64,000 nt of DNA from Gemmatimonadota bacterium (GTDB lineage Bacteria > Gemmatimonadota > Gemmatimonadetes > Longimicrobiales > Gaopeijiaceae): NCBI GenBank assembly GCA_028874905.1, contig JAPPGZ010000078.1:3595-67594 (forward strand), in the 5' to 3' direction. Within the stretch, counting starts at the first letter, position 1, and every line of letters begins with the position of its first letter. The notes under the pieces were generated by a model that was not told where the DNA came from, did no database searches, and was given only the letters and a program-made list of their open reading frames with translations. Both the position numbers and the translations under genes were made by a program. Positions 36,082 through 52,800 of the stretch are shown in pieces.

Positions 36082-37130
36082 GGAGACAGAATGGGATGAA
36101 GATGTTCATAGTCTTGGATTCCAACATGTGGATATCGCAGGTCGGACTTCAATCCCAAAACGGAGCCGCCGTTCGACACTTTGTCAAGCGACGTAAAGCT
36201 ATCATGGTAATACCGGAAGTAGTGGAACTTGAAGTCAGGTACGTGCTCACTGAACAAATGCTCGGCAAGAGAAAAGCAGTTGAGACCAACTACCGGCAGC
36301 TATTGCCAATAATGGGAAGTCTGCGAACTCTCGATTTACCCTCTGAAGATGACATCCGCGACGCAGTTGCTGCTCGTATCCTTAATCTCGATGTTCCGAC
36401 CCGTCGGGTGTCCCTTAACCTCGACGTGTCCCGGGCGTCGATGCTGAAAGTCATAGAGAAGCATTCGCCTTCCAAATCCAAGGAACAGTTCCGAGATGGC
36501 GTTATATGGGGTCATTGCTTGGACCTACTAGATGAGGGGAACGTGTATCTCATAACGAAGGATAAAGACTTCTACGAGAGGCGAAACTACAACGAGGGCT
36601 TGGCATCCGAATTGGTTGATGAAATGAGGGCACGCGGTACTAGGGGAGAGGTGAAGCTGCTCCGGGACCTGACTGACCTGCTACAGGAGATCCGCGTCAC
36701 GGTCAATCTAGACGATGGTGAGATCTTTCAGGTCGTCCGGGATGGACAAGGCGAGACGATAGATGAATTGCTGGTTGCGCACGGCTTTGGCTTGGTGGGT
36801 GAGGTCCGAGGTGAGGTGCAGTACTTCGCGACGGAAAAGGCTAGTGAGATCTACTTCAGGTTCCAGTTTTCACATCCTTGTGAGGACGTCATCGGGGCTG
36901 GTCGTCGCGCTGGGGTATTGAACCTCAAGGGATTCGGATTCCTCGATTTGGATACCAAGATGGCGATTGAGGTGAGCTTGTCAAACCTGCTGTTGGACTA
37001 TCCTGATTGGGTTGCCGATGGATCGTCGAGGGGTGCCGTGTTCTTGTCGGCGCATGTCAACGCACCGCTGGTTCACGAGATTCGGCTGCCGCTCTCCACC
37101 GCGAAAGGTAAGGAGGACGAGCCGCAGTGA
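36078..37130 (+). CDS. PIN-like (DUF4935-type) domain protein
   Basis: FIVLDSNMW, PEVVELEV, FRDGVIW and LITKDKDF give the D-E-D-D acidic pattern of a PIN-like fold. ATGA overlap with the mcrC stop; in-frame ATGs at 36096/36102 follow an AGGAG. Visibly lower GC than mcrBC. Confidence 0.55.
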   Translation: MRRQNGMKMFIVLDSNMWISQVGLQSQNGAAVRHFVKRRKAIMVIPEVVELEVRYVLTEQMLGKRKAVETNYRQLLPIMGSLRTLDLPSEDDIRDAVAARILNLDVPTRRVSLNLDVSRASMLKVIEKHSPSKSKEQFRDGVIWGHCLDLLDEGNVYLITKDKDFYERRNYNEGLASELVDEMRARGTRGEVKLLRDLTDLLQEIRVTVNLDDGEIFQVVRDGQGETIDELLVAHGFGLVGEVRGEVQYFATEKASEIYFRFQFSHPCEDVIGAGRRAGVLNLKGFGFLDLDTKMAIEVSLSNLLLDYPDWVADGSSRGAVFLSAHVNAPLVHEIRLPLSTAKGKEDEPQ

Positions 37131-37182: not shown

Positions 37183-37452
37183 TCACCTGACACCCGGCCT
37201 CGCAGAGGTCAGTGCTACGCGGCGCCTTACCTGCTTTTTGGCCGAGGGCTTCCAAGCGCGCGGCTTCCGCGGTGTTCCGGTGTTGAAGGCCTTGTAGGGT
37301 GTCCGCCCTGGCATCCCGCGGCGGCGGTGAGGCCGACGGGTGTTGTGGGTCTCAATACAGCCGCCCAAGTCGGTCCGCACCTTCTCGGCGGTGGGTGCGT
37401 GCCACCGTAGACGTAGTGGCATTCTCGTACACGGGTATCCCTTGCCCAACAC
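37183..37452 (-). mobile_element. Relic of an IS481/IS3-type DDE transposase (C-terminal ~60 codons only)
   Basis: ...DLGGCIETHNTRRPHRRRGMPGRTPYKAF resembles the conserved YN..RPH..L.G.TP tail of integrase-core transposases. No catalytic core or terminal repeats present. Confidence 0.45.
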
Positions 37453-37480
37453 CGCTCAACCTGCTATCTTCTGGGAACGC

Positions 37481-37501
37481 AATGTGACATTCTGTCACAT
37501 T
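37481..37501. promoter_or_regulatory. Perfect 9-3-9 inverted repeat upstream of dcm (candidate operator for the methyltransferase HTH)
   Basis: AATGTGACA-ttc-TGTCACATT ends 39 nt upstream of the ATG at 37541. Confidence 0.55.
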
Positions 37502-37540
37502 GCCGACAGGGCTGCGGAAGATGAGGAAAGGACGGGCGAC

Positions 37541-38821
37541 ATGATCACTCTCAAGCCGGCTGAGGTGCGCTCCTACAGAGAGCACTTGGATCTTACTCAG
37601 GAGGAACTCGCGAGTCGGTTGGGGCGCACTCGCCGCACCGTCATTCGCTGGGAAAGTGGTGAGACGACGCCCTCCACGGCAACGGCAATGGTCCTTCAGC
37701 AACTCGTCCGAGAATCGGGTCTTGGTGAACTCAATGGCTACCGGCCCGGCCATTTCACCTTCATCGACCTCTTTGCCGGGATCGGCGGCATGCGGTTGGG
37801 CTTCGAGCGTCGCGGTGGCCGATGCGTCTATACCTCCGAGTGGGACCGTTTCTCCCGGCAGACCTATCGGGCGAACTTCCCGCCAGAGGAGCAGATTGCG
37901 GGCGACATCCGGGAGGTCCGTACCACCGACGTCCCACAACATGACCTGCTCCTTGCGGGGTTCCCGTGCCAGCCGTTCTCGCTGGCCGGTGTCTCCAAGA
38001 AGAACTCACTTGGTCGGCCGCACGGATTCGCGGACGAGACGCAGGGGACACTCTTCTTCGACATCGCCCGCATCCTGCGGGATCACGAACCCGCGGCGTT
38101 CCTCCTGGAGAACGTGAAGCACCTCCAGAACCACGATCGCGGCCGGACCATGCACGTGATCCTCCGGACGCTGGAAGAGGAGCTCGGATACCACGTCACC
38201 ACGCGGGTGATCGACGCCCGTTCGTTCTTGCCCCAGCATCGGCAGCGTGTCTTTATCGCCGGATTCCGGGAGGACACGGACTTCGATTTGAAGGATCTCG
38301 ATCTGCCGGATCCGACAAAGGGTCCCCGGCTCGATTCGGTGCTTCACCCCGAGGATGGCTCCGAGGAAGCCGAGTCGCCCTACACCACGGGGGAGTCGGC
38401 AGTTGTCTCGGCGAAGTACACGCTCAGCGACCACCTCTGGTCGTATCTCCAGGAATACGCCCGAAAGCACCGGGAGCGGGGGAACGGATTCGGATTCGGC
38501 CTGGTCGGTCGGGAAGACACGGCCCGCACTCTGTCCGCTCGATACTACAAGGACGGGTCCGAGATCCTCATTCGTCAGGACGGGGCCAATCCCCGACGAC
38601 TGACGCCACGGGAATGCGCCCGGCTGATGGGGTTTGACGCTCCTGGCCAGAGCCTGTTCGAGATTCCGGTATCCGACACCCAGGCGTACAAGCAGTTCGG
38701 GAATGCAGTGGCTGTTCCGGTGGTCGATGCCATTGCGCGTGCGATGGCCCCGCATGTAGCATCGAGGGCGTCGAACCAGGACCAACTCAGTCTGTTCCCA
38801 GTCTCAGGGCGGTTTGATTGA
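37541..38821 (+). CDS. dcm: DNA (cytosine-5)-methyltransferase with N-terminal XRE-type HTH
   Basis: HTH LTQEELASRLGRTRRTVIRWESGE. C5-MTase motifs I FIDLFAGIGGMRLGF, IV GFPCQPFS, VI ENVKHL, VIII QHRQRVFIAGF, X QFGNAVAVPV. Confidence 0.95.
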   Translation: MITLKPAEVRSYREHLDLTQEELASRLGRTRRTVIRWESGETTPSTATAMVLQQLVRESGLGELNGYRPGHFTFIDLFAGIGGMRLGFERRGGRCVYTSEWDRFSRQTYRANFPPEEQIAGDIREVRTTDVPQHDLLLAGFPCQPFSLAGVSKKNSLGRPHGFADETQGTLFFDIARILRDHEPAAFLLENVKHLQNHDRGRTMHVILRTLEEELGYHVTTRVIDARSFLPQHRQRVFIAGFREDTDFDLKDLDLPDPTKGPRLDSVLHPEDGSEEAESPYTTGESAVVSAKYTLSDHLWSYLQEYARKHRERGNGFGFGLVGREDTARTLSARYYKDGSEILIRQDGANPRRLTPRECARLMGFDAPGQSLFEIPVSDTQAYKQFGNAVAVPVVDAIARAMAPHVASRASNQDQLSLFPVSGRFD

Positions 38822-39240
38822 CCGATATCGTCGATTCCCGGACCCGCAGCGCCATGATGGCGGCGATCCGGGGGAAAGACACGAAGCCGGAGGTCATTGT
38901 ACGCCGGTTTCTGCATCGCTCGGGCTTCCGGTTTCGACTGCACCGCCGTGACCTTCCGGGACGGCCGGACATCGTGCTCCCGAAATACCGCACCGTCGTC
39001 GAAGTCAGAGGGTGCTTCTGGCACCGACATGAAGGTTGCCCGTTCGCCTACATGCCGAAGTCGAATCGCAAGTTCTGGGAGTCGAAGCTGAACGGGAACC
39101 GGGAGAGAGATCAGCGGAATCTCAGGGAGCTGGCCAAGCTCGGCTGGCGCGCCATCGAGGTCTGGGAGTGCGAGTTGGGGGACGATGGGGTTCTTGAACG
39201 GCTGCCGGGTATGATCCGGGATCGGGTCTCCGGGGACTGA
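38818..39240 (+). CDS. vsr: Very-short-patch repair endonuclease
   Basis: RSAMMAAIRGKDTKPEVIVRRFLHRSGFRFRLHRRDLPGRPDIVLPKYRTVVEVRGCFWHRHEGC is the Vsr signature. TTG start overlaps the dcm stop by 4 nt. Confidence 0.9.
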   Translation: MTDIVDSRTRSAMMAAIRGKDTKPEVIVRRFLHRSGFRFRLHRRDLPGRPDIVLPKYRTVVEVRGCFWHRHEGCPFAYMPKSNRKFWESKLNGNRERDQRNLRELAKLGWRAIEVWECELGDDGVLERLPGMIRDRVSGD

Positions 39241-39256
39241 CAATGGATTCCGGCCC

Positions 39257-39892
39257 ATGAGCGTACGCGTCTTCATGAAACGGCTGGCGGAGGTCGAGAT
39301 CAATCCGCGGCTTTCGAACCAGCACGAGTTCAACGCTGGTGTGCTTCGACGGGAACTGGGGTTCGAAGCTGACCCTACTCGAGGCCATGTGGAATTCCTG
39401 TTCTACAAGACGGATGGCGGCGAGCCGGTTGTCGTGCGGGAGAACTACACGCTGTACGACGCGCGGCGGGACAACCCCAAACGCACCGAGTGGCGGATGT
39501 ACTACACCAACCTTGGTGTGGCGGCGCACGCCCGTGTTGATGACCTCATGCTTCTCTTCCGACCGGATTCGAGTAGCACCCACCTCATAGCCGTGATCGC
39601 ACGCAAGGGCACTGCGGTTGAGCGCGCGTTAGCCAAGCAACTCGCCGGACGCGAACCAGAGGAACTTGGTAAGAGGCTCTTCGTGGATTCGAGGAACGTC
39701 GACGCCGATACCTGTCGCATGCTTCTGCGATCCCTCGAAGGTTCTGTTTCGCCAGCCGAAGTCACGGCTGCCGCAGTTCGGTCGCATCCGCTCTTCCGGC
39801 AATCGTTCGCCTATGGTGTCATGCCGAACACGAACGAGATGGCAGGCGCGGCCCAGAAGATCATCACCGACCTTGGCGTAACGTCAGTCTGA
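39257..39892 (+). CDS. EcoRII-like restriction endonuclease, N-terminal (effector DNA-binding) part; separate ORF
   Basis: Position downstream of dcm-vsr, size, and a KRL(A/S)..N..(L)SNQHE start resembling the EcoRII-N KRLSANDTG..HQ segment. Ends 19 nt before the C-terminal ORF, in another frame. Confidence 0.5.
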   Translation: MSVRVFMKRLAEVEINPRLSNQHEFNAGVLRRELGFEADPTRGHVEFLFYKTDGGEPVVVRENYTLYDARRDNPKRTEWRMYYTNLGVAAHARVDDLMLLFRPDSSSTHLIAVIARKGTAVERALAKQLAGREPEELGKRLFVDSRNVDADTCRMLLRSLEGSVSPAEVTAAAVRSHPLFRQSFAYGVMPNTNEMAGAAQKIITDLGVTSV

Positions 39893-39911
39893 GCCCGACG
39901 AGTTCATACAA

Positions 39912-40472
39912 ATGGCGCTCGAAGCCGAGACGGAGCTGTTCATGTCCATCGAAAGCAGAATGGGCGATCGGGCGCTCGAAGAGGCCGTCAAGGAGGGTCG
40001 CTACGATTTCCACAAGGTGATGCAGATCTGTACGAGCTTCTCCCAACGGCGGAGGAGTCGCCGCGGCCAAAGCCTTGAGAATCACTTCCGTTTTCTTCTC
40101 GAGGAGCTCAGAATCCCTCACAGCTATCAGTGCACCACCGAGCGAGGGCGGAAGCCGGATTTCGTCTTCCCAAGTTGCGAACACTATCACAACCCCGGGT
40201 TCCCGGCCAGCCACCTGCGAATGGTCGGTTGCAAGACGCTGGTACGGGAGCGGCACACGCAATGGCTGGGAGAGGCGCTTCGGATTCCGCTCAAGTATGC
40301 CCTCTGTGTGGACCCTGGACTCTCGGATCGGTTGGTGGCGAGGTACAGAAAGCGATTGAGGTTCTTTCTGCCCCGGAGACTCCTAGATGCCACCTATGCC
40401 GATAGAGAAATCGGGGGACTACTCGGTTCGATTGATGACCTACTCGATGAGCTTCGTTTGCTAGCCCCATGA
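39912..40472 (+). CDS. EcoRII-like restriction endonuclease, C-terminal catalytic part; separate ORF
   Basis: GRKPDFVFPSCEHYHNPGFPASHLRMVGCKTLVRERHTQ matches my recollection of the EcoRII-C core (KPDF.FPS...Y.dp.FP...L.mLg.KTtcKdRWRQ), but with substitutions in the KDRWRQ stretch. Confidence 0.65.
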   Translation: MALEAETELFMSIESRMGDRALEEAVKEGRYDFHKVMQICTSFSQRRRSRRGQSLENHFRFLLEELRIPHSYQCTTERGRKPDFVFPSCEHYHNPGFPASHLRMVGCKTLVRERHTQWLGEALRIPLKYALCVDPGLSDRLVARYRKRLRFFLPRRLLDATYADREIGGLLGSIDDLLDELRLLAP

Positions 40473-40622
40473 ATTCCTCTTGCTGCCCACAGAACCCACC
40501 GAGAAACGAGCCGGGTGTGATGTGCTTCGTTGCCGACGAAGGAGATTGGTTTGCTAGTTGGCTATTTGCCCTTCTGGCAATGTCGAGATGCAGAATCAAG
40601 CTCTTCGACCGAGGAGGATTAC

Positions 40623-41729
40623 GTGCGTAGACAGACTAGTGAGTGGAGTGTGCGTATGCTGTCGGATTTCAGGAGCCGGATCAACGTTGACGCTGAGTAT
40701 CAGCGGGGAGCCGTTTGGTCCCGAGGGCAGCAGGCCCTTCTCATCGATTCGATTATTCGTGGCTTCGATATCCCCAAGATATTCTTACGCAAGCTGCCTG
40801 AAGGAGGCAAACACCTCTTTGACGTGATCGACGGTAAGCAGCGGCTGACTGCCATATGGGCCTTTGTCTCGGACGAATTCACCTTATTGCGGAATACTGA
40901 GCCGTTTCCCGAGCTTGGTGACCTCAGCGGTCAGCGATGGTCTGATCTCTCTGATATGGCGAGAGATCGCTTGCAGTTTACGAACATTACCATATCAAAG
41001 ATCGAAGACGCAACTGACGACGAAATCCGCGAGCTCTTCTTGAGACTGCAACGAGGCGAACCATTGAACGCGGCTGAGAGGCGCCACGCAATGTCGGGGC
41101 CACTGCGAGATTTTGTGGCCGACCATCTCGCCAGTCATGGACTGTGGGAACTCACACGGCTGCGGGCCGTGAGATTCGGCAAGGACGAGCACTCCGCCAT
41201 TCTCCTAGCCCTCGTCTGCCACGCCGGGCCAACGGGCCTTAGGGGTGCCGACCTCCATCGCCTTTATGAGATGGATCATTTCGATCCCACCGGGAACGAT
41301 GCGAAGCGGACGCTAAGGCTATTGGACGCCCTCCGAGATGTTGCGAGCGTGCAGCCAGGAGCGATAAGAACGCGATGGGGTCTTGTCGACCTCGCTCTGG
41401 TGCTGCTAAGGCTAGGCGATGAGGAGATTCCTGTGCCGCCCGACAAGTTGATGGAGTTCTTCTTGGCGTTTGAGAGAGAGCGCCGAGACGTTGCAGAGAT
41501 ATTGGCAGATTTGCAAACAAGACTGGTGGAGCCTACGGAGGCAGAGAGGGGGATTTCGGAAGAGGAAGACGACGTCAGGGAACAGATAACTCCAGAAATG
41601 CTGACCTACCATCTTGCTTTTGCCCGCGAGGGGGCCAGCAAAGAGAACGTGGCCAAACGGGCTAACACGATGTATGCTAGACTTAGGGCGTTTCTTGAGT
41701 TTACCGAGCTAGGCGGTCAGCGGAGATGA
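40623..41729 (+). CDS. DUF262 (ParB-like NTPase, GmrSD/SspE N-terminal type) protein without a nuclease domain
   Basis: YQRGAVWSRGQQALLIDSIIRGFDIPKIFL and VIDGKQRLTAIWAF. No DUF1524/HNH His-motifs in the C-terminal helical half. GTG 40623 is preceded by GAGGAGG; ATG 40656 is an alternative. Confidence 0.8.
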   Translation: MRRQTSEWSVRMLSDFRSRINVDAEYQRGAVWSRGQQALLIDSIIRGFDIPKIFLRKLPEGGKHLFDVIDGKQRLTAIWAFVSDEFTLLRNTEPFPELGDLSGQRWSDLSDMARDRLQFTNITISKIEDATDDEIRELFLRLQRGEPLNAAERRHAMSGPLRDFVADHLASHGLWELTRLRAVRFGKDEHSAILLALVCHAGPTGLRGADLHRLYEMDHFDPTGNDAKRTLRLLDALRDVASVQPGAIRTRWGLVDLALVLLRLGDEEIPVPPDKLMEFFLAFERERRDVAEILADLQTRLVEPTEAERGISEEEDDVREQITPEMLTYHLAFAREGASKENVAKRANTMYARLRAFLEFTELGGQRR

Positions 41730-42460
41730 AGTGGTCGGAGCTTATCTGGGGGCGTCCAGCAGCGGTCATCGCATCGGTGGGTTTGGCCCTCGCCGCGTTC
41801 TGGGAGGCCTCGATCTGGGTCGTACTGTGTTCTGTGTTCATCGTGGTGCATGCGTTCGTAGGCTGGGTGCGGGAACGGGGAGTCGTCTGGAGGCTGGGTG
41901 CAAACTACCGAGACGTGTTGCGTAGAGTATTGCACTTGCTCTCCGATCTTGGGAATCTCTCGGCAAATGGGTATGATCTCTGGATGATCGAGGTGTACCT
42001 GCCGAAGTACGTCTGGGTCGGAATGGCTGCCAATTGGCGACCTGGCCTGCAGAGGGCATTAGTACGAGAGTTGTCGGTGTCGGTTGGCGGCGCTTCAGAG
42101 CCGCCCCACAAATTTGCATTGACGCATCAGTTGTTTGGAAGGTGCTTCCGACGGGGGAGGTCGGAGCTTTGGTGGGATCGATCTCTCACGGATTCGTCAT
42201 TGAATGGAGTCAATAGCCCAGCGGAACTAGACGAGAAGACGTATACGGAACTAGAGCGGACGTTTGGGGTGGTCAGCGTTCACCCCATCGTGGACGCCGT
42301 TGGCAAGGATTGCGAAGGCCTGATAGTTATCCATGTGGGGCGGGACAGTGAGGCAGCAACGAAGGTGCTTGGTGCCCTCACGCAGCAAGAAGGGAGGCGT
42401 AGAATACTCGGGGCATGCAACGACATTCACAGCTACATCAAAAGAAGAGAGTTGCTCTAG
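41726..42460 (+). CDS. Two-TM membrane protein with soluble C-terminal domain (unknown family)
   Basis: ATGA overlap with the DUF262 gene. TM helices AAVIASVGLALAAFWEA and IWVVLCSVFIVVHAFVGWV. C-terminus (VVSVHPIVDAVGKDCEGLIVIHVG) is faintly GAF-like. Confidence 0.5.
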   Translation: MKWSELIWGRPAAVIASVGLALAAFWEASIWVVLCSVFIVVHAFVGWVRERGVVWRLGANYRDVLRRVLHLLSDLGNLSANGYDLWMIEVYLPKYVWVGMAANWRPGLQRALVRELSVSVGGASEPPHKFALTHQLFGRCFRRGRSELWWDRSLTDSSLNGVNSPAELDEKTYTELERTFGVVSVHPIVDAVGKDCEGLIVIHVGRDSEAATKVLGALTQQEGRRRILGACNDIHSYIKRRELL

Positions 42461-44874
42461 TCTTCTAGGGCGGTGATAAGCTGTTCCATTTCGAACGTCA
42501 GCAGGAATTCCGCGTAGTGGTTGCTCAACAAATCCTTGATGTAGTCCGCTACCGGGACATCGGTGGAGTCACGTTGTAGTTGGTACTTTCGATTCTGCGT
42601 GATAGCGTACAGGAACAAGGTGTGAAAGTACACAGCTGACATGTATCGCTTCTCGGCGACGGTGATCGCCTCTTGGCTCTTCAGGCCGGAACGATGATTG
42701 AGCCACACTCTGCTATCCATATTGACATAGATTACGGTCAACATGTCTCCATCAATCGCAGGGTGAACGATGGTAGCGTGATCCATGTCAACGCCTTGGT
42801 TCTCCAATTCCTGCCACGTCAGGTCTCCTACGGTGTTGTGCCTATAGATGCGGACAAGCTTTGGGAGGCCCAGTTGCGGGTCCAATTCCTTGTGGCCCTG
42901 ACGGGCAGGTCTTTTCCGTCGTTCAGGATCGACAATCTTGACGAGAATGTTCTCTTGGAATCCACCTTCGGGACCAGTCAGCGTCGCCGATATGGTTATG
43001 GCGTCTCCCACCTGGACATCGTTCGTTGGGTTCAAGCCGAGGCGTATCGTTCCTCGATTCGGGCTCGACTTGATGAGATTGAACAGTTGGTCGACACGAT
43101 TCGGCAGCGGACGACGCTCACCTTCTCCGCCGGAAACATCGTATTGGAGCAGACCGACCGACAGCTCGCCAAGATCACTGATGCGATCGAAGTACTGATT
43201 CTCAACATCGGTCGAGAACTTGATGGTGCGTTGGCTTCCGAACGGAAGTTGGACCATCGGCATGCCATTGGCGCGGTCTGACAACTCAGCCCGGAAGAAC
43301 GAGGGAAACCGCTGAGGACTGAACGGCGGTGGTTCCCGCTTCTTCGAAGCAGGCTTCTTGGGACGTGTCGTCTTCCGGTTACCCTTGCCTGATCCCTTGA
43401 GCTTCAGGGTGTGGTCGAAAAGCCGCATCAACTCGTTACGGAACGGAAGGTTAGTCGTGAGGTTGCGGAGAAGATCGTCGGCGCCAGTATCGTCAACTGA
43501 TATCTTTGCCTTCCTCTCCTTGTAGATCTCCTTTAATCGCCCGTCTCTCAAGAGCTTGCCTAGGCGCTTTCGGAGCTCCCGTGACTCCCGTCCGTCCTTT
43601 AGCCGGTCCCGTGATGCCATGAACAACTCTTGGCGAAAACCGATGTCGAGATCCGTGCAATCCACATGGACCAAGACGTAGTCCTTGAGGAGTTGAAACT
43701 TGAGAGTTCGAGAAACGAACTCAGACGTATAGTGGCCGTGTACTTGTCCGTTAACCGAGAAGATCACGGTCATGTTGTTCTTGAAGAACTCTCGGCGAAT
43801 CGTTCTCTTCGTGTCCTTTGCGTTGCGATCACCGACACGAGGCCGAAATACATACGTCGTGACCTTAGCGGAGCCGATCTCACTGTCGCTGAGCGACTGC
43901 GAGAACGAATCTTCCACGTACCTACTCGAGTCTTCCTCAAGCCTGCGTTTTAGGCCATAGATGTCACGTTGAAGGTTCCTGTCGTCAGGGTAACGAGATG
44001 GCTGGTCGATAGTGAAGAACGGAAGAGCGGGATTGAAGAGATACTCATTGAGGCTCTGGTTCAAGTCCCTAGAGATGACGGAGCGTGAACCGCTCGGGAG
44101 GTCATATGAGTAGAGCTTGATGATCGTGCCGGTGGTAAAACGGCGATTGCGTAGCCCGAGATCCAAGTCCTGAATCGAGAAGGAAGGGACACATCCATTA
44201 GGAGCGAAATACTCGTACCAAGTATTCCGCTTTGTCGTCTTTTCGAGCTCCGTGAGGGGATGCCGCCGGAGCAGAGTAAAACCGAGATTCCCGGAACCGT
44301 CCCATCTTCGGGAGCCAATGAGTTGGTAACGCTGCTGACCGCAGAAAGCGATCGCGCCCGCTCCGCCCATGTTGTATTTGCCCTGCACGAAATGAATCTC
44401 GTTTTTGTTGCCTCGAAGCAGTGAGAGGAAAGTGTCACTGAAGTCGTGTGGATGTTGCCCTTCCCCGTCGTCGTAGATCAGGAGCGAGGTCTCGAACCTT
44501 GGTCCATCTGCGATGATCTGAATGCTCTCGGCCTGTTTGCTCCGGAAGCTTCGTAGGTCCCAGTCTCCGGAATCAGGGAAAAACCGCGCGACGGCGTCGT
44601 CCACGGAGCGAGGCGCCTCACTAGACCGTGGATCGATACCGTCCTGAAGGCAGCGCCGTGTCAGAATCGCGTCGATTGAGTTTATGACCTTCTCAACTAG
44701 AGCCGGGATTGGCGAAGCCTGCTGGTTCTCAACTACGCCGAAGTTACTCTCGATCTCACCGTAAGGTCGCCAGTTGGCCGGGTCGTGGAAGGTGGAGTAG
44801 CGCTCGATGACGGCAGAGACGCCGGTCTCAGTGTCAGCGCGAAACAACTCCCAGAAAAGTGATTCGGACTCCAC
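42457..44874 (-). CDS. GHKL (Bergerat-fold) ATPase-like large protein, 805 aa
   Basis: N-box EKVINSIDA, G1 YDDGEGQ, G2 GKYNMGGAGAIAF within the first ~180 aa. Basic low-complexity linker (KGSGKGNRKTTRPKKPASKKR). The remaining ~600 aa are unassigned. GTG start; lower GC than the neighbours. Confidence 0.6.
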   Translation of the reverse strand: MESESLFWELFRADTETGVSAVIERYSTFHDPANWRPYGEIESNFGVVENQQASPIPALVEKVINSIDAILTRRCLQDGIDPRSSEAPRSVDDAVARFFPDSGDWDLRSFRSKQAESIQIIADGPRFETSLLIYDDGEGQHPHDFSDTFLSLLRGNKNEIHFVQGKYNMGGAGAIAFCGQQRYQLIGSRRWDGSGNLGFTLLRRHPLTELEKTTKRNTWYEYFAPNGCVPSFSIQDLDLGLRNRRFTTGTIIKLYSYDLPSGSRSVISRDLNQSLNEYLFNPALPFFTIDQPSRYPDDRNLQRDIYGLKRRLEEDSSRYVEDSFSQSLSDSEIGSAKVTTYVFRPRVGDRNAKDTKRTIRREFFKNNMTVIFSVNGQVHGHYTSEFVSRTLKFQLLKDYVLVHVDCTDLDIGFRQELFMASRDRLKDGRESRELRKRLGKLLRDGRLKEIYKERKAKISVDDTGADDLLRNLTTNLPFRNELMRLFDHTLKLKGSGKGNRKTTRPKKPASKKREPPPFSPQRFPSFFRAELSDRANGMPMVQLPFGSQRTIKFSTDVENQYFDRISDLGELSVGLLQYDVSGGEGERRPLPNRVDQLFNLIKSSPNRGTIRLGLNPTNDVQVGDAITISATLTGPEGGFQENILVKIVDPERRKRPARQGHKELDPQLGLPKLVRIYRHNTVGDLTWQELENQGVDMDHATIVHPAIDGDMLTVIYVNMDSRVWLNHRSGLKSQEAITVAEKRYMSAVYFHTLFLYAITQNRKYQLQRDSTDVPVADYIKDLLSNHYAEFLLTFEMEQLITALED

Positions 44875-45030: not shown

Positions 45031-45879
45031 TCATAGAGCACACACTGCGCAGGGCACTGTGTCGTCTTCGTCGTCCAAGGCATCCCCCAAGACTTCGACA
45101 AGCGGCAAATCCCGCCGGTTCTTCGCTGCCGCATGCATCGCGTCCCGATGGCGGGTGAGGATTTCGCCTTTACGAGATCGCAATTCCGTCAGAGTCTCCC
45201 CCCCAGACCAAGTGTACTGGCGACCGCGCATCGCTCGGTCCCGGAAGTCGGCATCACCGGCCACCCCGGCGTCCTGGAGCACCTTCTGCTCGATCGCCAC
45301 GGCCCGCTCGAACAGTTCCGGGTGACGCTCAGCGAGCCCAATCCATTCGGCCTTACGCTGATAGAAGCAGAAATAGCACCCCGATCGCGTCCTCCATTCG
45401 TAATACTTGGGAAGCCCAATCCCAGCGTCCTCCAAAATCCGCATGACCCCCTCGCGGTCGACGCCGTCCTCGATAAAGGGGAACCGGGACTGTATGTTCG
45501 ACTTGGTAGAGATGTACCCCTTGCGGTTCGACTCGTCGGCGCGGATTGCGACGTAGGAGATCGCCGGGGCGTCGCCGATCCACTCCTCGATGGGCTTGAT
45601 CTTCATGTTCTTCGTGCACCACCGCATCTGTGGGGATGGCAGCGTGCCGCGAAACACCTCGAACCAGTGGTCGAACCCGCGAGTCGCGTTGAGGTGGGTG
45701 ATGGGTTTGCCGAGTATGACCTGAAGCCGGGTCAAGTACTCGTAGGTCTCGGGGAGCTCGGCCCCGGTGTCACAAAAGAAGTACTCCATCGCGGGCACGG
45801 TATGCCTGAGGTACACGGCAAGGGCACTTGAATCCTTGCCTCCAGAGATACCGCAGATGTGCCGAGTGGCGTCAGGCAT
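45031..45879 (-). CDS. sspD: PAPS-reductase-like PP-loop ATP pyrophosphatase (SspD-like)
   Basis: PP-loop ISGGKDSSAL and FCDTGAELPETYEYL. ATG 45879 gives an ATGCCTGA overlap with the upstream gene stop. Confidence 0.75.
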   Translation of the reverse strand: MPDATRHICGISGGKDSSALAVYLRHTVPAMEYFFCDTGAELPETYEYLTRLQVILGKPITHLNATRGFDHWFEVFRGTLPSPQMRWCTKNMKIKPIEEWIGDAPAISYVAIRADESNRKGYISTKSNIQSRFPFIEDGVDREGVMRILEDAGIGLPKYYEWRTRSGCYFCFYQRKAEWIGLAERHPELFERAVAIEQKVLQDAGVAGDADFRDRAMRGRQYTWSGGETLTELRSRKGEILTRHRDAMHAAAKNRRDLPLVEVLGDALDDEDDTVPCAVCAL

Positions 45880-48800
45880 TCCGGACAATGTTTGTGGTGA
45901 GATGGACCGCGGCATCGTCATCCGCCACTTCCTCGGAGGGGAGAAGCCGCTCGGCGATGACCGCAAGGAGCGCCGAGAGCCCTCTCTTCTCCGACCCCAC
46001 TGTAGCTACTAACTGGCCCATGGCCCTGTCAAGGACATCGATGACCATTTGCTGATCGCGATCGTCGACGCCGACAAGCGCAACGTGCTCTCTGCCGTCG
46101 GGACGAGTGAGCGTCACGCGGAAGGGTTTGAACGGCCCTCCACCATCAGCACTCTGGTTGGCGTGGAGGGCCACGAGCCTTAGGAACGCCTCCACCCGGC
46201 GACCCAGCACGTGCCGAAACCGGGCGCGATCCCGATCGGTCCATTCAGACGGTGCTTTCTCGGCAACCACAGTCGCGATCGTGTCGACCCAGTCGGCGTC
46301 GGCACTCAGGGTGTCGTTGGCGAGCGAGAGAACGAAAGCCCGAACCTCAGGATCGAGAACCTCGTCCTCGAGGGACTTGGCGAAACCGGTAATCGCCTTG
46401 CGGGATGTCTCACCGCTCGCGTGCAGTAGATCTTGGAATAGCTGCTCAAGCAGCCTGTCCGCACAGCCGACGAGCTCGTCCACAGCGTCAACGAGCCGGG
46501 CGGCGTAGGTGCCGGCCGCCGGGTAGCTGGACGCGGACGGCGGGACAGCGGGCATCGTGAGCGCATGCGGCAAGCTCTCGAACAGGAGTTCGTCTGGCTC
46601 CACGGCGGTGAAAAGAGCCTCTTTAGCCCTGACCGTCGCTTCGCTCAAGCTGTCCGTTCTGCGTGTGAAGTTGTCCAAACGCTGAACGCGAGCAACCAAT
46701 TGGCCGACAACGCCCAGAACGTTGGCGACCCGGACCCGGCCGAGTCTTGGCCTCACACCCATTCGCTCGGCGATGGCCTCTACGACCTGGAGGCGTGCGC
46801 CGGTCGTATTGGCAAAGTGCTTGACCTCGAAGTGTCCCGGGTTCCGGACCATTCGCTCAGACAGCTCCGGCGTGAGCACCGGAATGAACGTCCCGTGCTC
46901 GTAGATGGCGACGTCCTCGTCTCGAACCAGCAGTGCCGCAGTCACGAATACCGGTAGGACGCCGCGCTTCATGCCCACAGGGGGAGACAGCAGGCAGGCG
47001 TAGATGTCCCGAAGATTGACTCGACGCCGGGTCGCCCGGCGGAACTCTTCCTCTACCACTCTCCACGCCTCTTGGAGCGTTTGGTCGGTCGGCGGGCCGA
47101 AGATCCAACTGGACTCCTGCGGCTCGAACCTGTGAAGTCCGGTTCTCGCGAGGAAAGCCCGGTACATCGCGACATCCGGGCCGTGGCCCGCCAAGCCCAA
47201 TTGCCCAGTGTCGCCCCTCTCTATCATGCCTTCCAGAAGCATGCGGCGCGCCTTCGCTCCCTGTGAGGTCACGGTCGTGCGATTGAGGACTTCGTTGCCC
47301 ACAGACGGGGTGGACCCGTAAGCGATGTCACACGCGTTGGAAATGGGCGCGCTTCCGCGTCCGCTCTTCAGGTCGCGACCCCCCGAGGCGTCCACTAATT
47401 TCCACCGGCAACGACCGGTCCCAAACGCCTCCACGATCGCGCGGTCAACGTGCATCTGGGCTTGGGCGAATCTCTCGCTGACTTCCTGTCGTGCTACCCA
47501 GTCCTCTTCGACCGTCGGATGCTCCATTACGGACTTCACAGCCACTAGTTCACGCGCGGCCTCGTCCAACGCCGTCAGGTCTTCCGCTAATCCTGCCACT
47601 ACGGGCTTAGATGCCTTGGATGACTTCGCCAGGTGTGGCAGCCCACCTGGACCGACCACGAACAGAGCCTCGCCATCGTAGTCGGAAAATGCGTCGAGCG
47701 GTTCGACGGTTTCTCCACCGGCCACGTACCTTCGGGCAAAAACCCTCAGCACGTCGTGTTTGGCACTGTGCCTCGCGGCCACCATGGGGTTGGCCGTGTC
47801 GGTGTCCGACAGTATTTCGGCGAGCGAGCGGTCTTGCGTTTCCCTCCGAGCCCTGGAAAGGAGCTGATGGATATCGACATCGGTGCCCTGCCAGATGCGG
47901 TACTCGTCGGAGAAATCGCGATAGGTAACCACGCCGGCGGCTTCCAACTTCGGGAGAAGGTCGCTGGCATCAGGCTCCAACTCGCCTAGTAGCCGCTTCG
48001 ATGCCCGAAGCACGCCGGTTGTTGAGACGAGGTTGAGGATGGCGATGGCTTTGGCCAGGCGCCGCTGAGCCCCGGTGAGGTTGGGGGCATCGCGCAGACG
48101 CGTTGCGATCTCTGTCCAGCGGCCTTGGTCGACCGGAACGCCCGCCATTGTGCCGTTGGCCACGAAGTAGTCGTAGATGCCGGCCAGTCCCAAGGACGGA
48201 AGCTGGCCCTTTGGTGGTAGCGGGGTCGCGTTCAGGTACGAGGCCGCGCTGGCTGGGTCGGCGCTCGTCAGGAACGAGAACAGCGTTCGTTCGTGCTGCC
48301 CATATCGGTTACACAACTCTGGCAGGACGGCCGCTGCCAGGGGATGAAGTGGATAGCAGGACGCTACGACATCAGGGTCACTCGTTTCCGAGATGCCTAG
48401 TGTGCGCATCGTAGCGGACTGCCGATCGGCCCACTCGTCGATACGATCGCGGACTCCACCGTCTGTCTGAAACACGGTTCCGATAAGCGCCCGGGTCTGG
48501 CTTGCTGATTCGACGTAGGCCATGGACTCGAAGCGCCCCTGCACCTTTGCCCACTCCCGGCGTTGCGGTCCTTCCGTGTGCGACAGATAGTCTTCGAAGG
48601 AAAGGTGCTGCAACGTCATCAGGAAGATGGGGAGGCCTGAGCCTTGCCCGGCTTCGGCGAGTTGCTGAAGCAGATAGGGGTCCCCTTCGCTGCTGTCGGC
48701 GATCGCTTCTAGGTTCTTTCCGAATTCGTCGATCACCAGGAAAAAGGGCCCGTCACTAGCCAGGCACTTCGCAACCTCTATCAGCGCGGCTGGCGAGGGG

Positions 48801-49333
48801 CCAGTACGGCGGGGATCGTCGCTAGCCGCGTCACTGAGTGCCGTCTTGAGCGCGTCCGCGGCTGGGAAGCGGCGACGGGAGGGAATCCGGCCGAAAGCCG
48901 CCAACACGGCACTGTGGAGTCCCTTAAGTACAGTGAGATTCAATGGTTCACGCGATGCAGTCACCAAGCCCCGATGGAATCCGGTTTCCTGCGTTCCGTG
49001 ATTGTCGTGAGCCATCCACACGGAATCTGCCATGTCCGGGTCTGCCGCTTCCACGAGCCCGACTGCTGCATCCCGCGTTGCCCCGTCGGGCCCGAGTAGT
49101 CCGTCCAACAGCAGGGCTAGTGACGACTTGCCCGAGCCGTACGGGCCGGTAAGGGACCAAGCCCCTCCCGCCTGATGGGTTGCGGCCACGGTGAGAATCC
49201 GATCAACGGCTTCGAGCGCTCGCGCTGTAACGACATAGCCCTCGAGAGGTTGAGACTGGCGGGAATCTCGCTCGAGATTCGCGGACCGTGCGAAGCGTGG
49301 CAGGATTCGAACATGATCGCCGAGTGTCGGCAT
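45872..49333 (-). CDS. sspC: Large P-loop ATPase (SspC-like)
   Basis: Walker A GPYGSGKSSLAL and Walker B-like FFLVIDEFGKNLE. Size of 1153 aa. Position between the DUF4007 and PAPS-reductase-like genes. Confidence 0.7.
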   Translation of the reverse strand: MPTLGDHVRILPRFARSANLERDSRQSQPLEGYVVTARALEAVDRILTVAATHQAGGAWSLTGPYGSGKSSLALLLDGLLGPDGATRDAAVGLVEAADPDMADSVWMAHDNHGTQETGFHRGLVTASREPLNLTVLKGLHSAVLAAFGRIPSRRRFPAADALKTALSDAASDDPRRTGPSPAALIEVAKCLASDGPFFLVIDEFGKNLEAIADSSEGDPYLLQQLAEAGQGSGLPIFLMTLQHLSFEDYLSHTEGPQRREWAKVQGRFESMAYVESASQTRALIGTVFQTDGGVRDRIDEWADRQSATMRTLGISETSDPDVVASCYPLHPLAAAVLPELCNRYGQHERTLFSFLTSADPASAASYLNATPLPPKGQLPSLGLAGIYDYFVANGTMAGVPVDQGRWTEIATRLRDAPNLTGAQRRLAKAIAILNLVSTTGVLRASKRLLGELEPDASDLLPKLEAAGVVTYRDFSDEYRIWQGTDVDIHQLLSRARRETQDRSLAEILSDTDTANPMVAARHSAKHDVLRVFARRYVAGGETVEPLDAFSDYDGEALFVVGPGGLPHLAKSSKASKPVVAGLAEDLTALDEAARELVAVKSVMEHPTVEEDWVARQEVSERFAQAQMHVDRAIVEAFGTGRCRWKLVDASGGRDLKSGRGSAPISNACDIAYGSTPSVGNEVLNRTTVTSQGAKARRMLLEGMIERGDTGQLGLAGHGPDVAMYRAFLARTGLHRFEPQESSWIFGPPTDQTLQEAWRVVEEEFRRATRRRVNLRDIYACLLSPPVGMKRGVLPVFVTAALLVRDEDVAIYEHGTFIPVLTPELSERMVRNPGHFEVKHFANTTGARLQVVEAIAERMGVRPRLGRVRVANVLGVVGQLVARVQRLDNFTRRTDSLSEATVRAKEALFTAVEPDELLFESLPHALTMPAVPPSASSYPAAGTYAARLVDAVDELVGCADRLLEQLFQDLLHASGETSRKAITGFAKSLEDEVLDPEVRAFVLSLANDTLSADADWVDTIATVVAEKAPSEWTDRDRARFRHVLGRRVEAFLRLVALHANQSADGGGPFKPFRVTLTRPDGREHVALVGVDDRDQQMVIDVLDRAMGQLVATVGSEKRGLSALLAVIAERLLPSEEVADDDAAVHLTTNIVRNA

Positions 49334-50325
49334 TACGAGTCTCCGGCCGCCGCGAGGGCTAGTTGGCTCGGTTGCTTGCGTTCGGACGCGCTAGCACCTG
49401 GCACGCCGTAGTAGTCATCGAGGATTCGCCGCCCTAGCCCTTCGCGCTCGTCGGCCCAAGCGAGTTGGACACCCCCGGTCGCGGTGACCAGATCCAGTCC
49501 GGGGGTCCGTTCCACGGTGGCCTCAAGGCCCGTAAGCATCTCGGACTCGCTTAGCACGAATGCTCTACCAGGAGAGCCCGGCGCCAAGGCCAGTCGGCTC
49601 AGGGCGACCGTGTTGCCGCCTATGCCGATGCGAGTGAGGTAGTCCAAGGCCGAATACGCAAGCACTTCTGAGGGCAAGGTGATCTTTGTTCCCACCGTGA
49701 ACCGGTACCGCCCCAAACCGGGCGACCGGCCGATCAGGTTCAGTTCACGGAGCGGACAGTCGAGAATGTCGTCGATCGGGACGCGACCCCGCTGTTCGCG
49801 GGGCGCGTACGTGCGGAGCAACGCGCCAACGTCCTTCTTGATTGATGAGGTGTGTGGCTTTCGCCACTCGGCGGCCAGGTCGAGCTGCGTGTCGACCGCG
49901 GCCTGCAGATCGTCCTCCGTAAACTCCACAGCGTGGAATTCATTGAAGGCGAGCCACCAGATCGGCACGTGACTTGGTGGAGCCAGGAGCAACCAGTGGA
50001 GTAACCAGAGGGTGCCCGGGTCCTCCATGTATTGGTCCCATCCACCATCACCGAACAACGCGTCACCCAACGGCGTCGTCACCAGCTCCGGGGATCTTGG
50101 GGTGGGAGAGTCGGGATCCTCTGCAATCAGCTTGGCGGCTAGCCCCCAGAAGCGAATCGCCCGAACCATGTTCTTTCCCACCCCGATCCGAACTGGTGCG
50201 TCGTCGCCGAAGAAGGCACGTGGGTTGGAGGCCACTTGGGCGTACGCCTTCCGGAACCAACCGTAGCGAGGGTGGAAGGTCTCGTGTCTGGCGAACATCG
50301 GGACCGCAGCATCGACCAGTCTCAT
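49333..50325 (-). CDS. sspB: DUF4007 family protein (SspB-like)
   Basis: N-terminal ARHETFHPRYGWFRKAY...VGKNMVRAIRFWGLAAKLI is the DUF4007 signature. TAATG junction with the next gene. Confidence 0.8.
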   Translation of the reverse strand: MRLVDAAVPMFARHETFHPRYGWFRKAYAQVASNPRAFFGDDAPVRIGVGKNMVRAIRFWGLAAKLIAEDPDSPTPRSPELVTTPLGDALFGDGGWDQYMEDPGTLWLLHWLLLAPPSHVPIWWLAFNEFHAVEFTEDDLQAAVDTQLDLAAEWRKPHTSSIKKDVGALLRTYAPREQRGRVPIDDILDCPLRELNLIGRSPGLGRYRFTVGTKITLPSEVLAYSALDYLTRIGIGGNTVALSRLALAPGSPGRAFVLSESEMLTGLEATVERTPGLDLVTATGGVQLAWADEREGLGRRILDDYYGVPGASASERKQPSQLALAAAGDS

Positions 50326-51582
50326 CTAATCGAGCCCCGACAGACTGCGAACGCGCGTGACGGCCTCTGCTGTTCGGTCCAGTGCCACTTCGATGTCCTG
50401 TTCGGTCGTGAAGCGTCCGAAGCTAAATCGGACGCACTCGAACGCTGCCTCTCGGGACAGGCCCATGGCCAACAGAACGTCCGACGGCTCGATCGACCCC
50501 GAACTGCATGCGCTGCCCGTTGATGCGGCGACCGGATCCATGTTGGCCACTACGGCGTCCGCGTCAGCACCGTGGAAACGCAGATTGGCTGTATTAGGAA
50601 GGCGGCAATTCACATCTCCGATTTCGCTGACATAAGGCAATCTTGCCTTCAGGGCTTGGGTGAAACGATCACAGAGTCGTCCCACCCTTCGGGATTCCGG
50701 TACGCGTTCTTGGCGGGCAAGATCCGCTGCCACGCCGAGTCCGACGATCCCCGCGACATTTAGCGACCCAGACCGCAGGCCCCGTTCATGGCCCCCGCCG
50801 TGGATCTGCGGGCGCAGCTGGCGGAGAGCCCGGCGGCTGCCGACCAACGCTCCCACTCCACCAGGCCCACAGATCTTGTGGCCGCTTAGCGAGATGAGGT
50901 CGATACCCAACTCTTCCATCTCCAGGGGCATTCGCCCCACGAACTGCGTGACGTCCGAGTGGAGCAGGGCACCGGTCTCGCGAACGATCTCGGAGATCTC
51001 GCTGAGCGGGTTCATCACCCCGGTCTCGGCGTTGGCCGCGATCACCGACACCAACAGGACATCTGGTCCAAGCGATGACTCAAGTGCGGCCAAGTCGATG
51101 AAACCGCCTTCGGTGATCGGAACGATATTTAGGCGAACCAGACCCCGCTCTGCGAGCCACTTTGCGGTGCGCGATACCGACGCATGTTCGGCGGCTGACA
51201 CCAGCATCCTGTCTCGGCCCGCCGGCGCACCTTCCAACGCCCCTCGTAGAGCGAGGTTGTTGGCTTCCGTCGCGCTCGCGGTGAAGACGACGCCGTTTGG
51301 AGAGCCGCCAACCAAGGTCGCGACCTGCTCGCGTGCGTCGTCAACGAGTACCGCCTGACGCCGCCCAAAAGCATGAGTCGATGACGCATTCCCTGATCGT
51401 TTGGTGAGAATCGGGACCATGACATCAGCGACCCGCGGGTCGAGAGGTGCTGACCCGTTGTAGTCGAGGTAGATCTCTCGTTCGATGTCTCGCCCTGGCG
51501 ATTCATGCCGCCCCGTCCGTGGCACCGACACTTCGTCTAGCAACGTTGATACTTCGGACTCAATTCGGGTTACGTTCGGCAT
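50326..51582 (-). CDS. sspA: Cysteine desulfurase (class V aminotransferase; SspA/IscS-like)
   Basis: PLP-lysine SGHKICGPGGVGAL and active-site Cys loop ASTGSACSSG. TAGATG junction with the DUF4007 gene. Confidence 0.9.
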   Translation of the reverse strand: MPNVTRIESEVSTLLDEVSVPRTGRHESPGRDIEREIYLDYNGSAPLDPRVADVMVPILTKRSGNASSTHAFGRRQAVLVDDAREQVATLVGGSPNGVVFTASATEANNLALRGALEGAPAGRDRMLVSAAEHASVSRTAKWLAERGLVRLNIVPITEGGFIDLAALESSLGPDVLLVSVIAANAETGVMNPLSEISEIVRETGALLHSDVTQFVGRMPLEMEELGIDLISLSGHKICGPGGVGALVGSRRALRQLRPQIHGGGHERGLRSGSLNVAGIVGLGVAADLARQERVPESRRVGRLCDRFTQALKARLPYVSEIGDVNCRLPNTANLRFHGADADAVVANMDPVAASTGSACSSGSIEPSDVLLAMGLSREAAFECVRFSFGRFTTEQDIEVALDRTAEAVTRVRSLSGLD

Positions 51583-52543: not shown

Positions 52544-52800
52544 CGGAGCACCTCTCGTCCTCGGCGGTTCCGCCAGGATATTGCAGTCCGCGGTTCCCCG
52601 GGAAAGTCTAACGCAGAAGTCAATCAATCCAACAGATGTCAACCTTACTTGTCATTATGTCAATCAAAGTTGACACACGCGGCCGCTCACCAGCTCATCC
52701 GGGAGTGGAAGGAGGTGCCCGACGAAGCCGTGTTCCGGGTCGTTCGGGTGGTGCGGGACGGGGATTGGTAAGTCACTGAACAGAGGAGCAATCGCAGCCA

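Follow-up and report, generated by a model that had tools for sequence, protein, structure and literature searches.

We have analyzed a gene coding for a GHKL-family ATPase of 805 amino acids that lies beside a complete sspABCD operon, the genes of Ssp phosphorothioation, in a Gemmatimonadota bacterium (assembly GCA_028874905.1, contig JAPPGZ010000078.1, positions 3,595 to 67,594; this whole stretch of 64,000 nucleotides is what we call the window). The protein combines a predicted GHKL domain with a transducer and belongs to a large, highly conserved family without a name, which is likely a previously undescribed, optional accessory of SspABCD phosphorothioation and whose activity we infer from that of related ATPases. 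A first-pass annotation, made from the letters alone, had singled out this open reading frame (ORF) as a candidate novel defence effector. Its coordinates and its orientation were confirmed (the positions of all features are collected in Table 1), and all four Ssp proteins are full-length by PADLOC. The stop codon of sspD (45031) is separated from the GHKL gene by 156 nt on the same strand and, as no terminator-like site was found in this gap, co-transcription with sspABCD is plausible. So is the GTG start, because the homologues align from residue 1. A hypothetical protein from a Gemmatimonadota metagenome-assembled genome has the same sequence as the product (100% identity). The patch of lower GC in which the gene had been placed is real, with 54.3% GC in the gene, 61–63% in the ssp genes and 66–67% in the flanks of the window.

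The evidence that ties the family to Ssp comes from the neighbourhoods of its homologues. A scan with one genome per species provided 154 relatives, from which 80 loci were taken with up to 10 kb of flank, and the ssp genes were detected by tblastn with the Ssp proteins of the window. Homologues of sspB/C/D were found within 10 kb in 53 of the 56 loci that had at least 8 kb on both flanks, an enrichment of the kind that the first-pass annotation had anticipated. The linkage spans at least 12 phyla, and the hosts include Gemmatimonadota, Alpha- and Gammaproteobacteria, Bacteroidota, Rhodothermota, Acidobacteriota and Latescibacterota, besides Binatia, Thermodesulfobacteriota, Syntrophales, Poribacteria, Nitrospirota, Chloroflexota and others. 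The three plasmids with a close homologue (from Hymenobacter, Devosia and Ensifer) all have it beside sspBCD, and in the Hymenobacter plasmid the series GHKL-SIR2-DUF262-sspD-sspC-sspB is bracketed by two integrase genes. Among the clustered neighbours of the GHKL loci we found no recurrent linkage to any other system. In the window and in L001, L002, L006, L013 and L019 the gene is co-oriented with sspABCD and probably co-transcribed with it.

The reverse relation is much looser. The GHKL gene is present on 3 of 68 plasmids bearing SspC, which indicates that it is an optional accessory, and Ssp loci devoid of it can carry other genes such as DndB-like, helicase and PLD (Trichormus) or PglZ/BrxL (Thermomicrobium). 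A role as core Ssp subunit was considered and rejected on account of this low number and of the exchange between unrelated Ssp cores described below. Optional partners are known for Ssp, SspE being present in 7.4% and SspFGH in 7.3% of the Ssp loci (PMC8092258), and the frequency of the GHKL accessory is similar to theirs.

The family is large, with at least 2694 homologues in the databases. The best 120 of these relatives are ~810 aa long, aligned over their full length with 57–88% identity, and are all unnamed or "hypothetical". A profile search of 1.84 billion representatives gave 2134 clusters at E ≤1e-3, a family size that can also be expressed as 2134 clusters at 50% identity, and 731 at E ≤1e-30. 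Neither PADLOC nor NCBIfam had a match to the protein, and the openly accessible Ssp, Dnd and BREX literature (subscription-only papers fell outside the search) holds no account of a GHKL or MORC protein with Ssp or phosphorothioate (PT) marks. The protein thus corresponds to no defence protein already named in these sources, in agreement with the first-pass annotation.

The boxes of a Bergerat fold had been read from the letters in the correct order, and that is how they appear in the alignments. EKVINSIDA occupies residues 61–69, YDDGEGQ residues 134–140 and GKYNMGGAGAIAF residues 165–177, so that motif I corresponds to E61-N65-D68-A69, motif II to D135-G137-G139 and motif III to G165-G173, followed by motif IV at T248-G249-T250. 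E61, K62, N65, D68, A69, D135, G137, G139 and Q140 were invariant in the 76 full-length homologues, and so were G165, N168, G170, G171, G173 and G249; judged from the alignment, such invariance is far above chance. Pfam HATPase_c_3 (PF13589) matched the protein with 17.6 bits (E 0.004), below its gathering threshold of 25 bits. The same sub-threshold match was found in 22 of 23 family members at E ≤0.01 (best 3.9e-5), and 1 of the 120 database relatives had a precomputed PF13589 call. A profile search of all PDB sequences gave no match at E ≤1.

The GHKL fold had been set beforehand as one of the points on which the original idea could fall, and it was supported by structure comparison. We built a full-length AlphaFold2 (AF2) model from a 23-sequence alignment (mean predicted local distance difference test, pLDDT, of 67; ATP lid disordered). 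In Foldseek alignments of ~440 columns, the model matched the 43-kDa ATPase fragment of ParE/GyrB with E 7e-8 and full-length Hsp90 with E 2.8e-7; Grp94 N-domains were matched as well, and the probabilities for ParE, Hsp90 and Grp94 were 0.94–1.0. The ParE fragment has 394 aa and consists of GHKL domain and transducer, and the match extends accordingly over the S5-fold transducer that was also looked for; the top query-normalised template modelling score (TM-score) was that of Hsp90. In BFVD, the structures matched were ATPases of phage type II topoisomerases. As a prediction, the combination of GHKL domain and S5-type transducer can be regarded as established.

The overall layout resembles MutL, with an ATPase part, a flexible linker and a separate C-terminal domain. 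W35, G39 and N44 of the N-terminal extension are kept even in relatives with 25–47% identity, and the extension is possibly a strap like the N-terminal arm of GyrB. In the transducer NGQ375-377 is invariant and K365 is present in 72 of 76 homologues, and in the helical arm that follows, with a net charge of +7 (family median +4), R422, R424 and K426 of the FMASRDRLK motif are invariant in all 76. In GHKL+S5 ATPases a conserved basic residue of the transducer contacts the gamma-phosphate of ATP, and K365, R422, R424 and K426 are conserved candidates for this contact. The basic KKPASKKR linker noticed in the first reading is predicted to be disordered, with AF2 pLDDT below 50 across residues 459–520. 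After it, an immunoglobulin (Ig)-like sandwich opens with the conserved motif TDVExQYFDR, where D556 and R564 are invariant in the 76 homologues, and the protein ends in a domain with a net charge of −7 (family median −10). Relatives at 25–47% identity share a conserved core from the N-terminus to about residue 570 and differ in the last 240 residues. The C-terminal domain is well conserved inside the close clade and therefore appears specific to the Ssp-linked members.

A nuclease or reader domain at the C-terminus was looked for and not found. The separate AF2 model of residues 520–805 (pLDDT 80) gave Ig-like matches by Foldseek (E ~7e-5), of a generic type, and for the acidic C-terminal domain no PDB fold was matched. 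Walker A, DQHA (MutL) and PD-(D/E)xK motifs were also searched for with regular expressions, and none is present in the protein. Therefore, of the proposed "defence effector" the link to a defence module stands, and the word effector is unproven since the C-terminal 280 aa have no identifiable effector or reader domain.

The comparison of the GHKL protein with its Ssp neighbours gives an indication of how it may work. The GHKL protein is far better conserved than they are, with a median pairwise identity of 54%, against 24.5% for SspC, 30% for SspB and 49% for SspD. The distance matrices of GHKL and Ssp proteins were correlated (r = 0.62–0.68, Mantel p = 0.001, with 0.68 for GHKL-SspC), though much less tightly than the Ssp proteins among themselves, for which the correlation was 0.87–0.96, with 0.91–0.96 given for SspB, SspC and SspD. 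Single pairs of loci are very informative. In L036 and L030, GHKL, SspB, SspC and SspD are 94–95% identical and the neighbouring cassettes differ, while the GHKL proteins of L031 and L026 are 89% identical over Ssp proteins with identities of 28% (SspC), 49% (SspD) and 35% (SspB). Among the pairs with a GHKL identity of at least 75%, 6 of 26 have an SspC identity of 35% or less, and the reverse case was also seen. By these comparisons the GHKL gene travels with Ssp, yet passes between Ssp cores that are unrelated and between cassettes. This suggests that the protein may act through the PT mark and not through co-adapted protein contacts. The simplest common denominator of a GHKL protein found beside SspB and SspC that can barely be aligned would be the PT-modified DNA, which would assign it to the side of mark reading or restriction. 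Cross-compatibility with foreign SspBCD has been shown experimentally for SspFGH and SspE (PMC8092258).

By clustering all the neighbouring ORFs, we have found that these loci also contain recurrent two-gene cassettes, which lie either just after the GHKL gene or between it and sspD. At least one cassette is present in ~57 of the 63 Ssp+GHKL loci (~90%), and the GHKL protein is therefore not a lone effector. The first-pass annotation had it standing alone on an Ssp module, which does not hold even for the window, where it is accompanied by a DUF262 protein and a protein with two transmembrane (TM) helices. One type of cassette (28–29 loci, e.g., L017:5646-9988) pairs a paraMORC-like protein (HATPase_c_3, HEF_HK, HATPase_c) with a partner of ~640 aa (cluster c6) that has no Pfam match. 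The paper on HEF_HK ties such genes to restriction-modification (RM) systems, with no mention of phosphorothioation (PMC8011034). The ~640-aa partner was found on six plasmids, always near SspC, and five of the six lack the GHKL gene, so the cassettes are independent of it; plasmids with the paraMORC/HEF_HK module are CP115927, CP059321, CP040642, CP000700 and CP101520. A second type (~12–14 loci, e.g., L009:8048-9822) has a DndB/DGQHR-like protein of ~420 aa, whose gene is preceded by that of a ~173-aa protein with a GIY...YIG-like motif and without Pfam match. In 11 loci a DUF262/GmrSD_N protein is combined with a Ser/Thr kinase, with SIR2 or, in the window, with the 244-aa two-TM protein; the DUF262 protein of the window belongs to cluster c8, which is elsewhere paired with kinase or SIR2 beside the GHKL gene. 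Other combinations are SspE-like DUF262+DUF1524 proteins (L021, L077), a PLD-helicase with AAA_23 (L023) and a paraMORC (HATPase_c_3) with a Swt1-like HEPN protein (L038, 12720-15452). Besides, L005 and L072 contain a paraMORC and a ~130-aa protein with a GIY...YIG-like motif (clusters c26/c27). A tie of the GHKL gene to one effector module was rejected: the nearest GHKL relative had the same cassette in 29 of 54 cases vs. 39% by chance, and the modules also occur without GHKL. From this pattern, the Ssp islands appear to be modular, with a conserved sspBCD(+GHKL) backbone and two-gene effector cassettes that are rapidly swapped.

Where a paraMORC cassette is found beside the GHKL gene, the locus holds two unrelated GHKL ATPases, which is the case in many of them. 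Paralogy between the two was rejected by hhalign, in which the GHKL family aligned to the paraMORC-like cluster c26 with E 0.058 and to c5 with E 4.4e-4 (probability 34%), against E 2.3e-6 between c5 and c26. The likeness to MORC and paraMORC proteins raised by the first-pass annotation holds, then, for the superfamily and is lost at the level of profiles, and by this measure we are dealing with a distinct GHKL family outside the described paraMORC families.

Our preferred reading, to which we assign a probability of about 45%, is that the GHKL protein acts on the restriction (mark-reading) side of Ssp as a DNA clamp gated by ATP. By analogy with GyrB/ParE, MutL, Hsp90 and MORC, it would be dimeric, the binding of ATP would close its N-terminal domains, and the transducer would couple hydrolysis to the distal parts. 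The helical arm and the Lys/Arg linker, which are basic across the family and provide a conserved potential for DNA binding, would hold the DNA inside or against the clamp. The protein might in this way survey DNA in an ATP-dependent manner, and whether or not the DNA bears the PT marks of SspABCD would direct the interference with an invader. The interference could consist of entrapment or compaction of DNA, as proposed for MORCs, or of the licensing of nickases or nucleases of the same cassette (SspB, SspE-like, DndB-like or DUF262 modules), in the way that MutL licenses MutH. There are precedents for GHKL ATPases in restriction-like systems, namely the paraMORCs (PMC2292703) and the GHKL-Shedu protein VcSduA (PMC12137116), and SspB has been called a nickase (PMC12914056). 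A narrower version makes the protein a nuclease-free executive arm, a MORC/MutL-like clamp that would take PT as a self signal and entrap or compact unmarked DNA, or license SspB. We consider this version quite improbable; if true, it would represent prokaryotic immunity by GHKL clamping guided by an epigenetic mark, parallel to the eukaryotic MORC silencing.

Several observations weigh against a mark-reading clamp. By Pfam, Foldseek and motifs we found no nuclease, no PT-binding domain (SBD, DUF262) and no other reader domain, and the C-terminal domain is acidic, which is not what a DNA reader looks like and argues against such a simple role for it. A protein that confronts phages directly would not usually be as highly conserved as the GHKL protein. 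With ~90% of the loci already provided with another candidate effector module, it need not restrict anything by itself. Three full-flank loci (L015, L067 and L073) have no nearby ssp genes and yet keep the motifs intact. Finally, the full-length model that underlies the structural assignment is itself of moderate quality.

The best placed of the alternatives is that the GHKL protein is a generic hub that couples the Ssp or PT status to the variable modules without itself interfering, which we regard as unlikely. One conserved component with variable effectors is the typical pattern of a sensor or transducer, and the directly adjacent modules of ~57 of 63 loci fit well here. The modules were swapped over a backbone of sspBCD and GHKL 94% identical (L036 vs. 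L030). The GHKL gene even overlaps tail-to-tail with the effector gene of the module, its stop codon sharing the palindrome CTAG with that of the 244-aa gene in the window, and in the same way 4 nt with that of the SIR2 gene in the Hymenobacter plasmid. However, modules are found beside Ssp where there is no GHKL gene (five of the six c6 plasmids and the DndB/helicase/PLD set of Trichormus), and some loci, such as L019, L029, L008 and L013, have sspABCD and GHKL with no recognised module. Furthermore, the GHKL clades hardly follow the type of module, as the figures given above indicate, and a single protein would need to dock to unrelated partners.

A place on the modification side is decidedly unlikely. 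Here the protein would be an ATP-driven remodeller or chaperone, similar to Hsp90 or MutL, acting on the assembly of SspBCD, on the nick made by SspB or on PT density. The shared orientation and probable co-transcription with sspABCD are in line with this, as are the place of Hsp90 among the top structural matches, with its leading query-normalised TM-score, and the high conservation of GHKL, which fits an enzymatic role of housekeeping type. The nickase assignment of SspB (PMC12914056) would also provide a partner, GHKL proteins being common partners of DNA-cleaving proteins (PMC2292703). Nevertheless, the published SspABCD systems modify DNA without any GHKL protein (PMC8092258), and ~95% of the SspC plasmids lack the gene. 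An intimate subunit or a dedicated chaperone would hardly be expected to be exchanged between cores only 24–28% identical in SspC, and the orientation of the gene and its distance to ssp are variable, other modules often lying between them.

That the gene is an independent, self-sufficient defence gene or a gene of another kind that merely shares islands with Ssp is the most improbable of these readings, for although the window is a dense defence island (McrBC, PIN, Dcm-Vsr-EcoRII-like and DUF262), distant members stand alone, one of them beside a phage terminase, and three Chloroflexota loci have a metabolic neighbourhood, the co-localisation in 53 of 56 loci over at least 12 phyla far exceeds what is ordinary within islands, no other system recurs likewise and the Hymenobacter integrases enclose GHKL together with sspBCD.

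The closest functional analogues of the GHKL protein are SspE and SspFGH, which have the same genomic role and frequency and no homology to it. SspE, a PT-sensing protein made of DUF262 and DUF1524, is likewise an optional partner located after sspD in a minority of loci (for GHKL, ~4% of the SspC plasmids), and both can be combined with other partners and apparently work with divergent SspBCD. But the GHKL protein has no DUF262 or DUF1524 by Pfam and PADLOC, no sequence similarity to SspE and no identified nuclease, and it is not an SspE replacement because SspE-like genes co-occur with it (L021, L077). SspFGH, the restriction module of SspBCD, is also an alternative Ssp-linked module. Its effect is additive with that of SspE, it is compatible with foreign SspBCD, and it includes a Walker-A protein, SspF, and an SspH with an FtsK/SpoIIIE-like C-terminus (PMC8092258). 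It consists of three genes and its ATPase class is that of the P-loop, whereas here we have a single gene of the GHKL class without Walker A or FtsK-like domain.

In structure the protein comes closest to the GHKL+S5 ATPases, and in concept its closest precedents are the paraMORCs of RM operons and VcSduA. MORC and paraMORC1-5 were described as GHKL+S5 ATPases of RM operons (Iyer, Abhiman and Aravind 2008, PMC2292703). They share with our protein the GHKL domain and S5-type transducer, the C-terminal extensions specific to each family, the location in a defence locus based on modification and the same general prediction of ATP-driven remodelling of DNA superstructure or complexes. The RM-type neighbourhood that marks paraMORCs is likewise present here, beside sspBCD in the 53 of 56 loci. 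In contrast to them, the similarity is at the superfamily level, HATPase_c_3 remains sub-threshold, the partner is a phosphorothioation module instead of a methylase, helicase or restriction endonuclease, and there is no fused nuclease or TIR. VcSduA (paraMORC3-type) is an experimentally validated defence protein that is inactive when its ATPase motifs are mutated (PMC12137116). It is also a GHKL ATPase in a single polypeptide, but with a C-terminal DUF4263 PD-(D/E)xK nuclease that was not found in the GHKL protein, and it has no link to a module for DNA modification.

More distant parallels are provided by the other GHKL machines. MutL is a mark-guided matchmaker that licenses a nickase, and its N-terminal GHKL and transducer, long flexible linker and separate C-terminal domain are laid out in the same manner. 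Our protein lacks the DQHA(X)2E(X)4E motif, a match to the MutL C-terminal domain and any PDB sequence match, and has instead the Ig-like sandwich followed by an unmatched alpha/beta domain. The GyrB/ParE 43-kDa fragment and Hsp90 are the top structural matches for residues ~1–440, with identities of 10–12% and TM-scores of 0.19–0.37, values that are low partly because of domain orientation. The GHKL protein has neither the Toprim and tail domains of the former nor the C-terminal dimerisation domain of Hsp90.

The interest of the family lies in the fact that the reading of PT marks is still poorly understood and that 84% of the sspBCD loci have no known restriction partner (PMC8092258). A large, strikingly conserved and unannotated family tied to Ssp would define a further class of Ssp system, and the picture of modular islands helps to annotate Ssp systems that appear as "orphans". 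If the GHKL protein does read PT, it would add to SspE and SspFGH a third solution of unrelated structure, and no GHKL ATPase would have been linked before it to a modification of the DNA backbone. Being a single gene, it offers a tractable handle, since there are cultured carriers: Ensifer adhaerens NER9 (plasmid pC), Devosia neptuniae, Hymenobacter sp. YIM 151858-1 and Rhodocaloribacter litoris.

Table 1. Position of the GHKL gene, the regions of its product and the neighbouring genes in the window.
Feature	Position	Strand	Basis or remarks
GHKL-family ATPase gene	42457..44874	-	805 aa, GTG start, TAG stop; ORF and translation
Residues 1-54, acidic N-terminal helical extension	44713..44874	-	helices 3-30 at pLDDT 84-89; net charge -7
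Residues 55-262, Bergerat-fold (GHKL) ATP-binding domain, motifs I-IV (predicted)	44089..44712	-	motifs, sub-threshold Pfam, Foldseek
Residues 263-410, transducer, S5 domain 2-like (predicted)	43645..44088	-	Foldseek alignment with ParE 43-kDa fragment
Residues 411-485, basic helical arm with FMASRDRLK motif	43420..43644	-	AF2 helices
Residues 486-525, disordered Lys/Arg/Pro linker (KKPASKKR)	43300..43419	-	net charge +10, family median +5
Residues 526-650, Ig-like beta-sandwich (predicted)	42925..43299	-	C-terminal model pLDDT 80; Foldseek
Residues 651-805, loop and acidic alpha/beta C-terminal domain	42460..42924	-	modelled at pLDDT 80-92
sspA (cysteine desulfurase)	50326..51582	-	PADLOC SspA E 1.3e-122; Pfam Aminotran_5
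sspB (DUF4007)	49333..50325	-	Pfam DUF4007 E 3.5e-79; PADLOC SspB E 2.2e-97
sspC (BrxC-like ATPase, 1153 aa)	45872..49333	-	PADLOC SspC 1020 bits, E = 0, model 2-1101 of 1104
sspD (PAPS-reductase-like)	45031..45966	-	PADLOC SspD E 6.8e-107; Pfam PAPS_reduct
Convergent two-gene module	40530..42460	+	DUF262/GmrSD_N 40530-41729 and 244-aa protein 41726-42460

In the window, the ORF listed for sspD overlaps the end of sspC by 95 nt (45872-45966). The PADLOC SspD model begins at residue 35 of this ORF, so the real start of sspD is probably an internal Met codon. Directly upstream of sspA and on the same strand there is an ORF of 328 aa (51656-52642) that had no match in Pfam, PADLOC or NCBIfam and no counterpart in the 80 related loci. 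The DUF262/GmrSD_N protein of the convergent module (399 aa) matched Pfam GmrSD_N with E 6e-18 and the NsnA-like model of PADLOC with E 8e-28. Its gene is translationally coupled to that of the 244-aa protein, which has two N-terminal hydrophobic helices, and the pair resembles a sensor of the SspE type whose effectors can be swapped and are not nucleases.

The module, together with McrBC, a PIN protein and a Dcm-Vsr-EcoRII-like set, belongs to a defence island of lower GC that spans ~32.7–53.5 kb and ends close to a YhgA-like transposase. On the forward strand, positions 32732-37130 contain genes for an McrB-like AAA_5 protein (747 aa), McrC (369 aa) and an overlapping PIN_12 protein (350 aa), which together make up a type IV restriction unit extended by a PIN gene. 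They are followed (37340-40472, same strand) by a C5 cytosine methylase fused to a helix-turn-helix domain, a Vsr endonuclease and two proteins of 211 and 186 aa. The latter has the EcoRII C-terminal catalytic domain only and the 211-aa protein has no family match; the unit is probably a type II RM system with a split EcoRII-like enzyme.

Some members of the family were found far from Ssp. In three Chloroflexota loci (L067, L073 and L075) the GHKL gene, with intact motifs, is surrounded by metabolic genes whose arrangement is conserved (acyl-CoA ligase, enolase-superfamily, ThDP enzyme and oxidoreductase genes), and no ssp genes were found within reach. Pontibacillus, two haloarchaeal plasmids and four viral contigs carry distant relatives (24–36% identity) away from ssp, in keeping with a module that can act autonomously. 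A phage origin of the family is unlikely, with 5 relatives, 4 of them distant, in 2.9 million viral contigs. Relatives do exist in phages, as indicated by two viral contigs (L087:9494-11320 and L088:9989-12241) in which a member 27% identical and 750 aa long adjoins the genes for the phage large terminase and portal. In another contig classed as viral (L085:850-12439), genes for a GIY-like, a DndB-like and a GHKL protein come after a Dam-type methyltransferase and four co-oriented genes (746, 418, 577 and 334 aa) that have no match in Pfam or PADLOC. No ssp genes were found within 10 kb upstream, and the locus may represent a different modification module that uses the same GHKL accessory.

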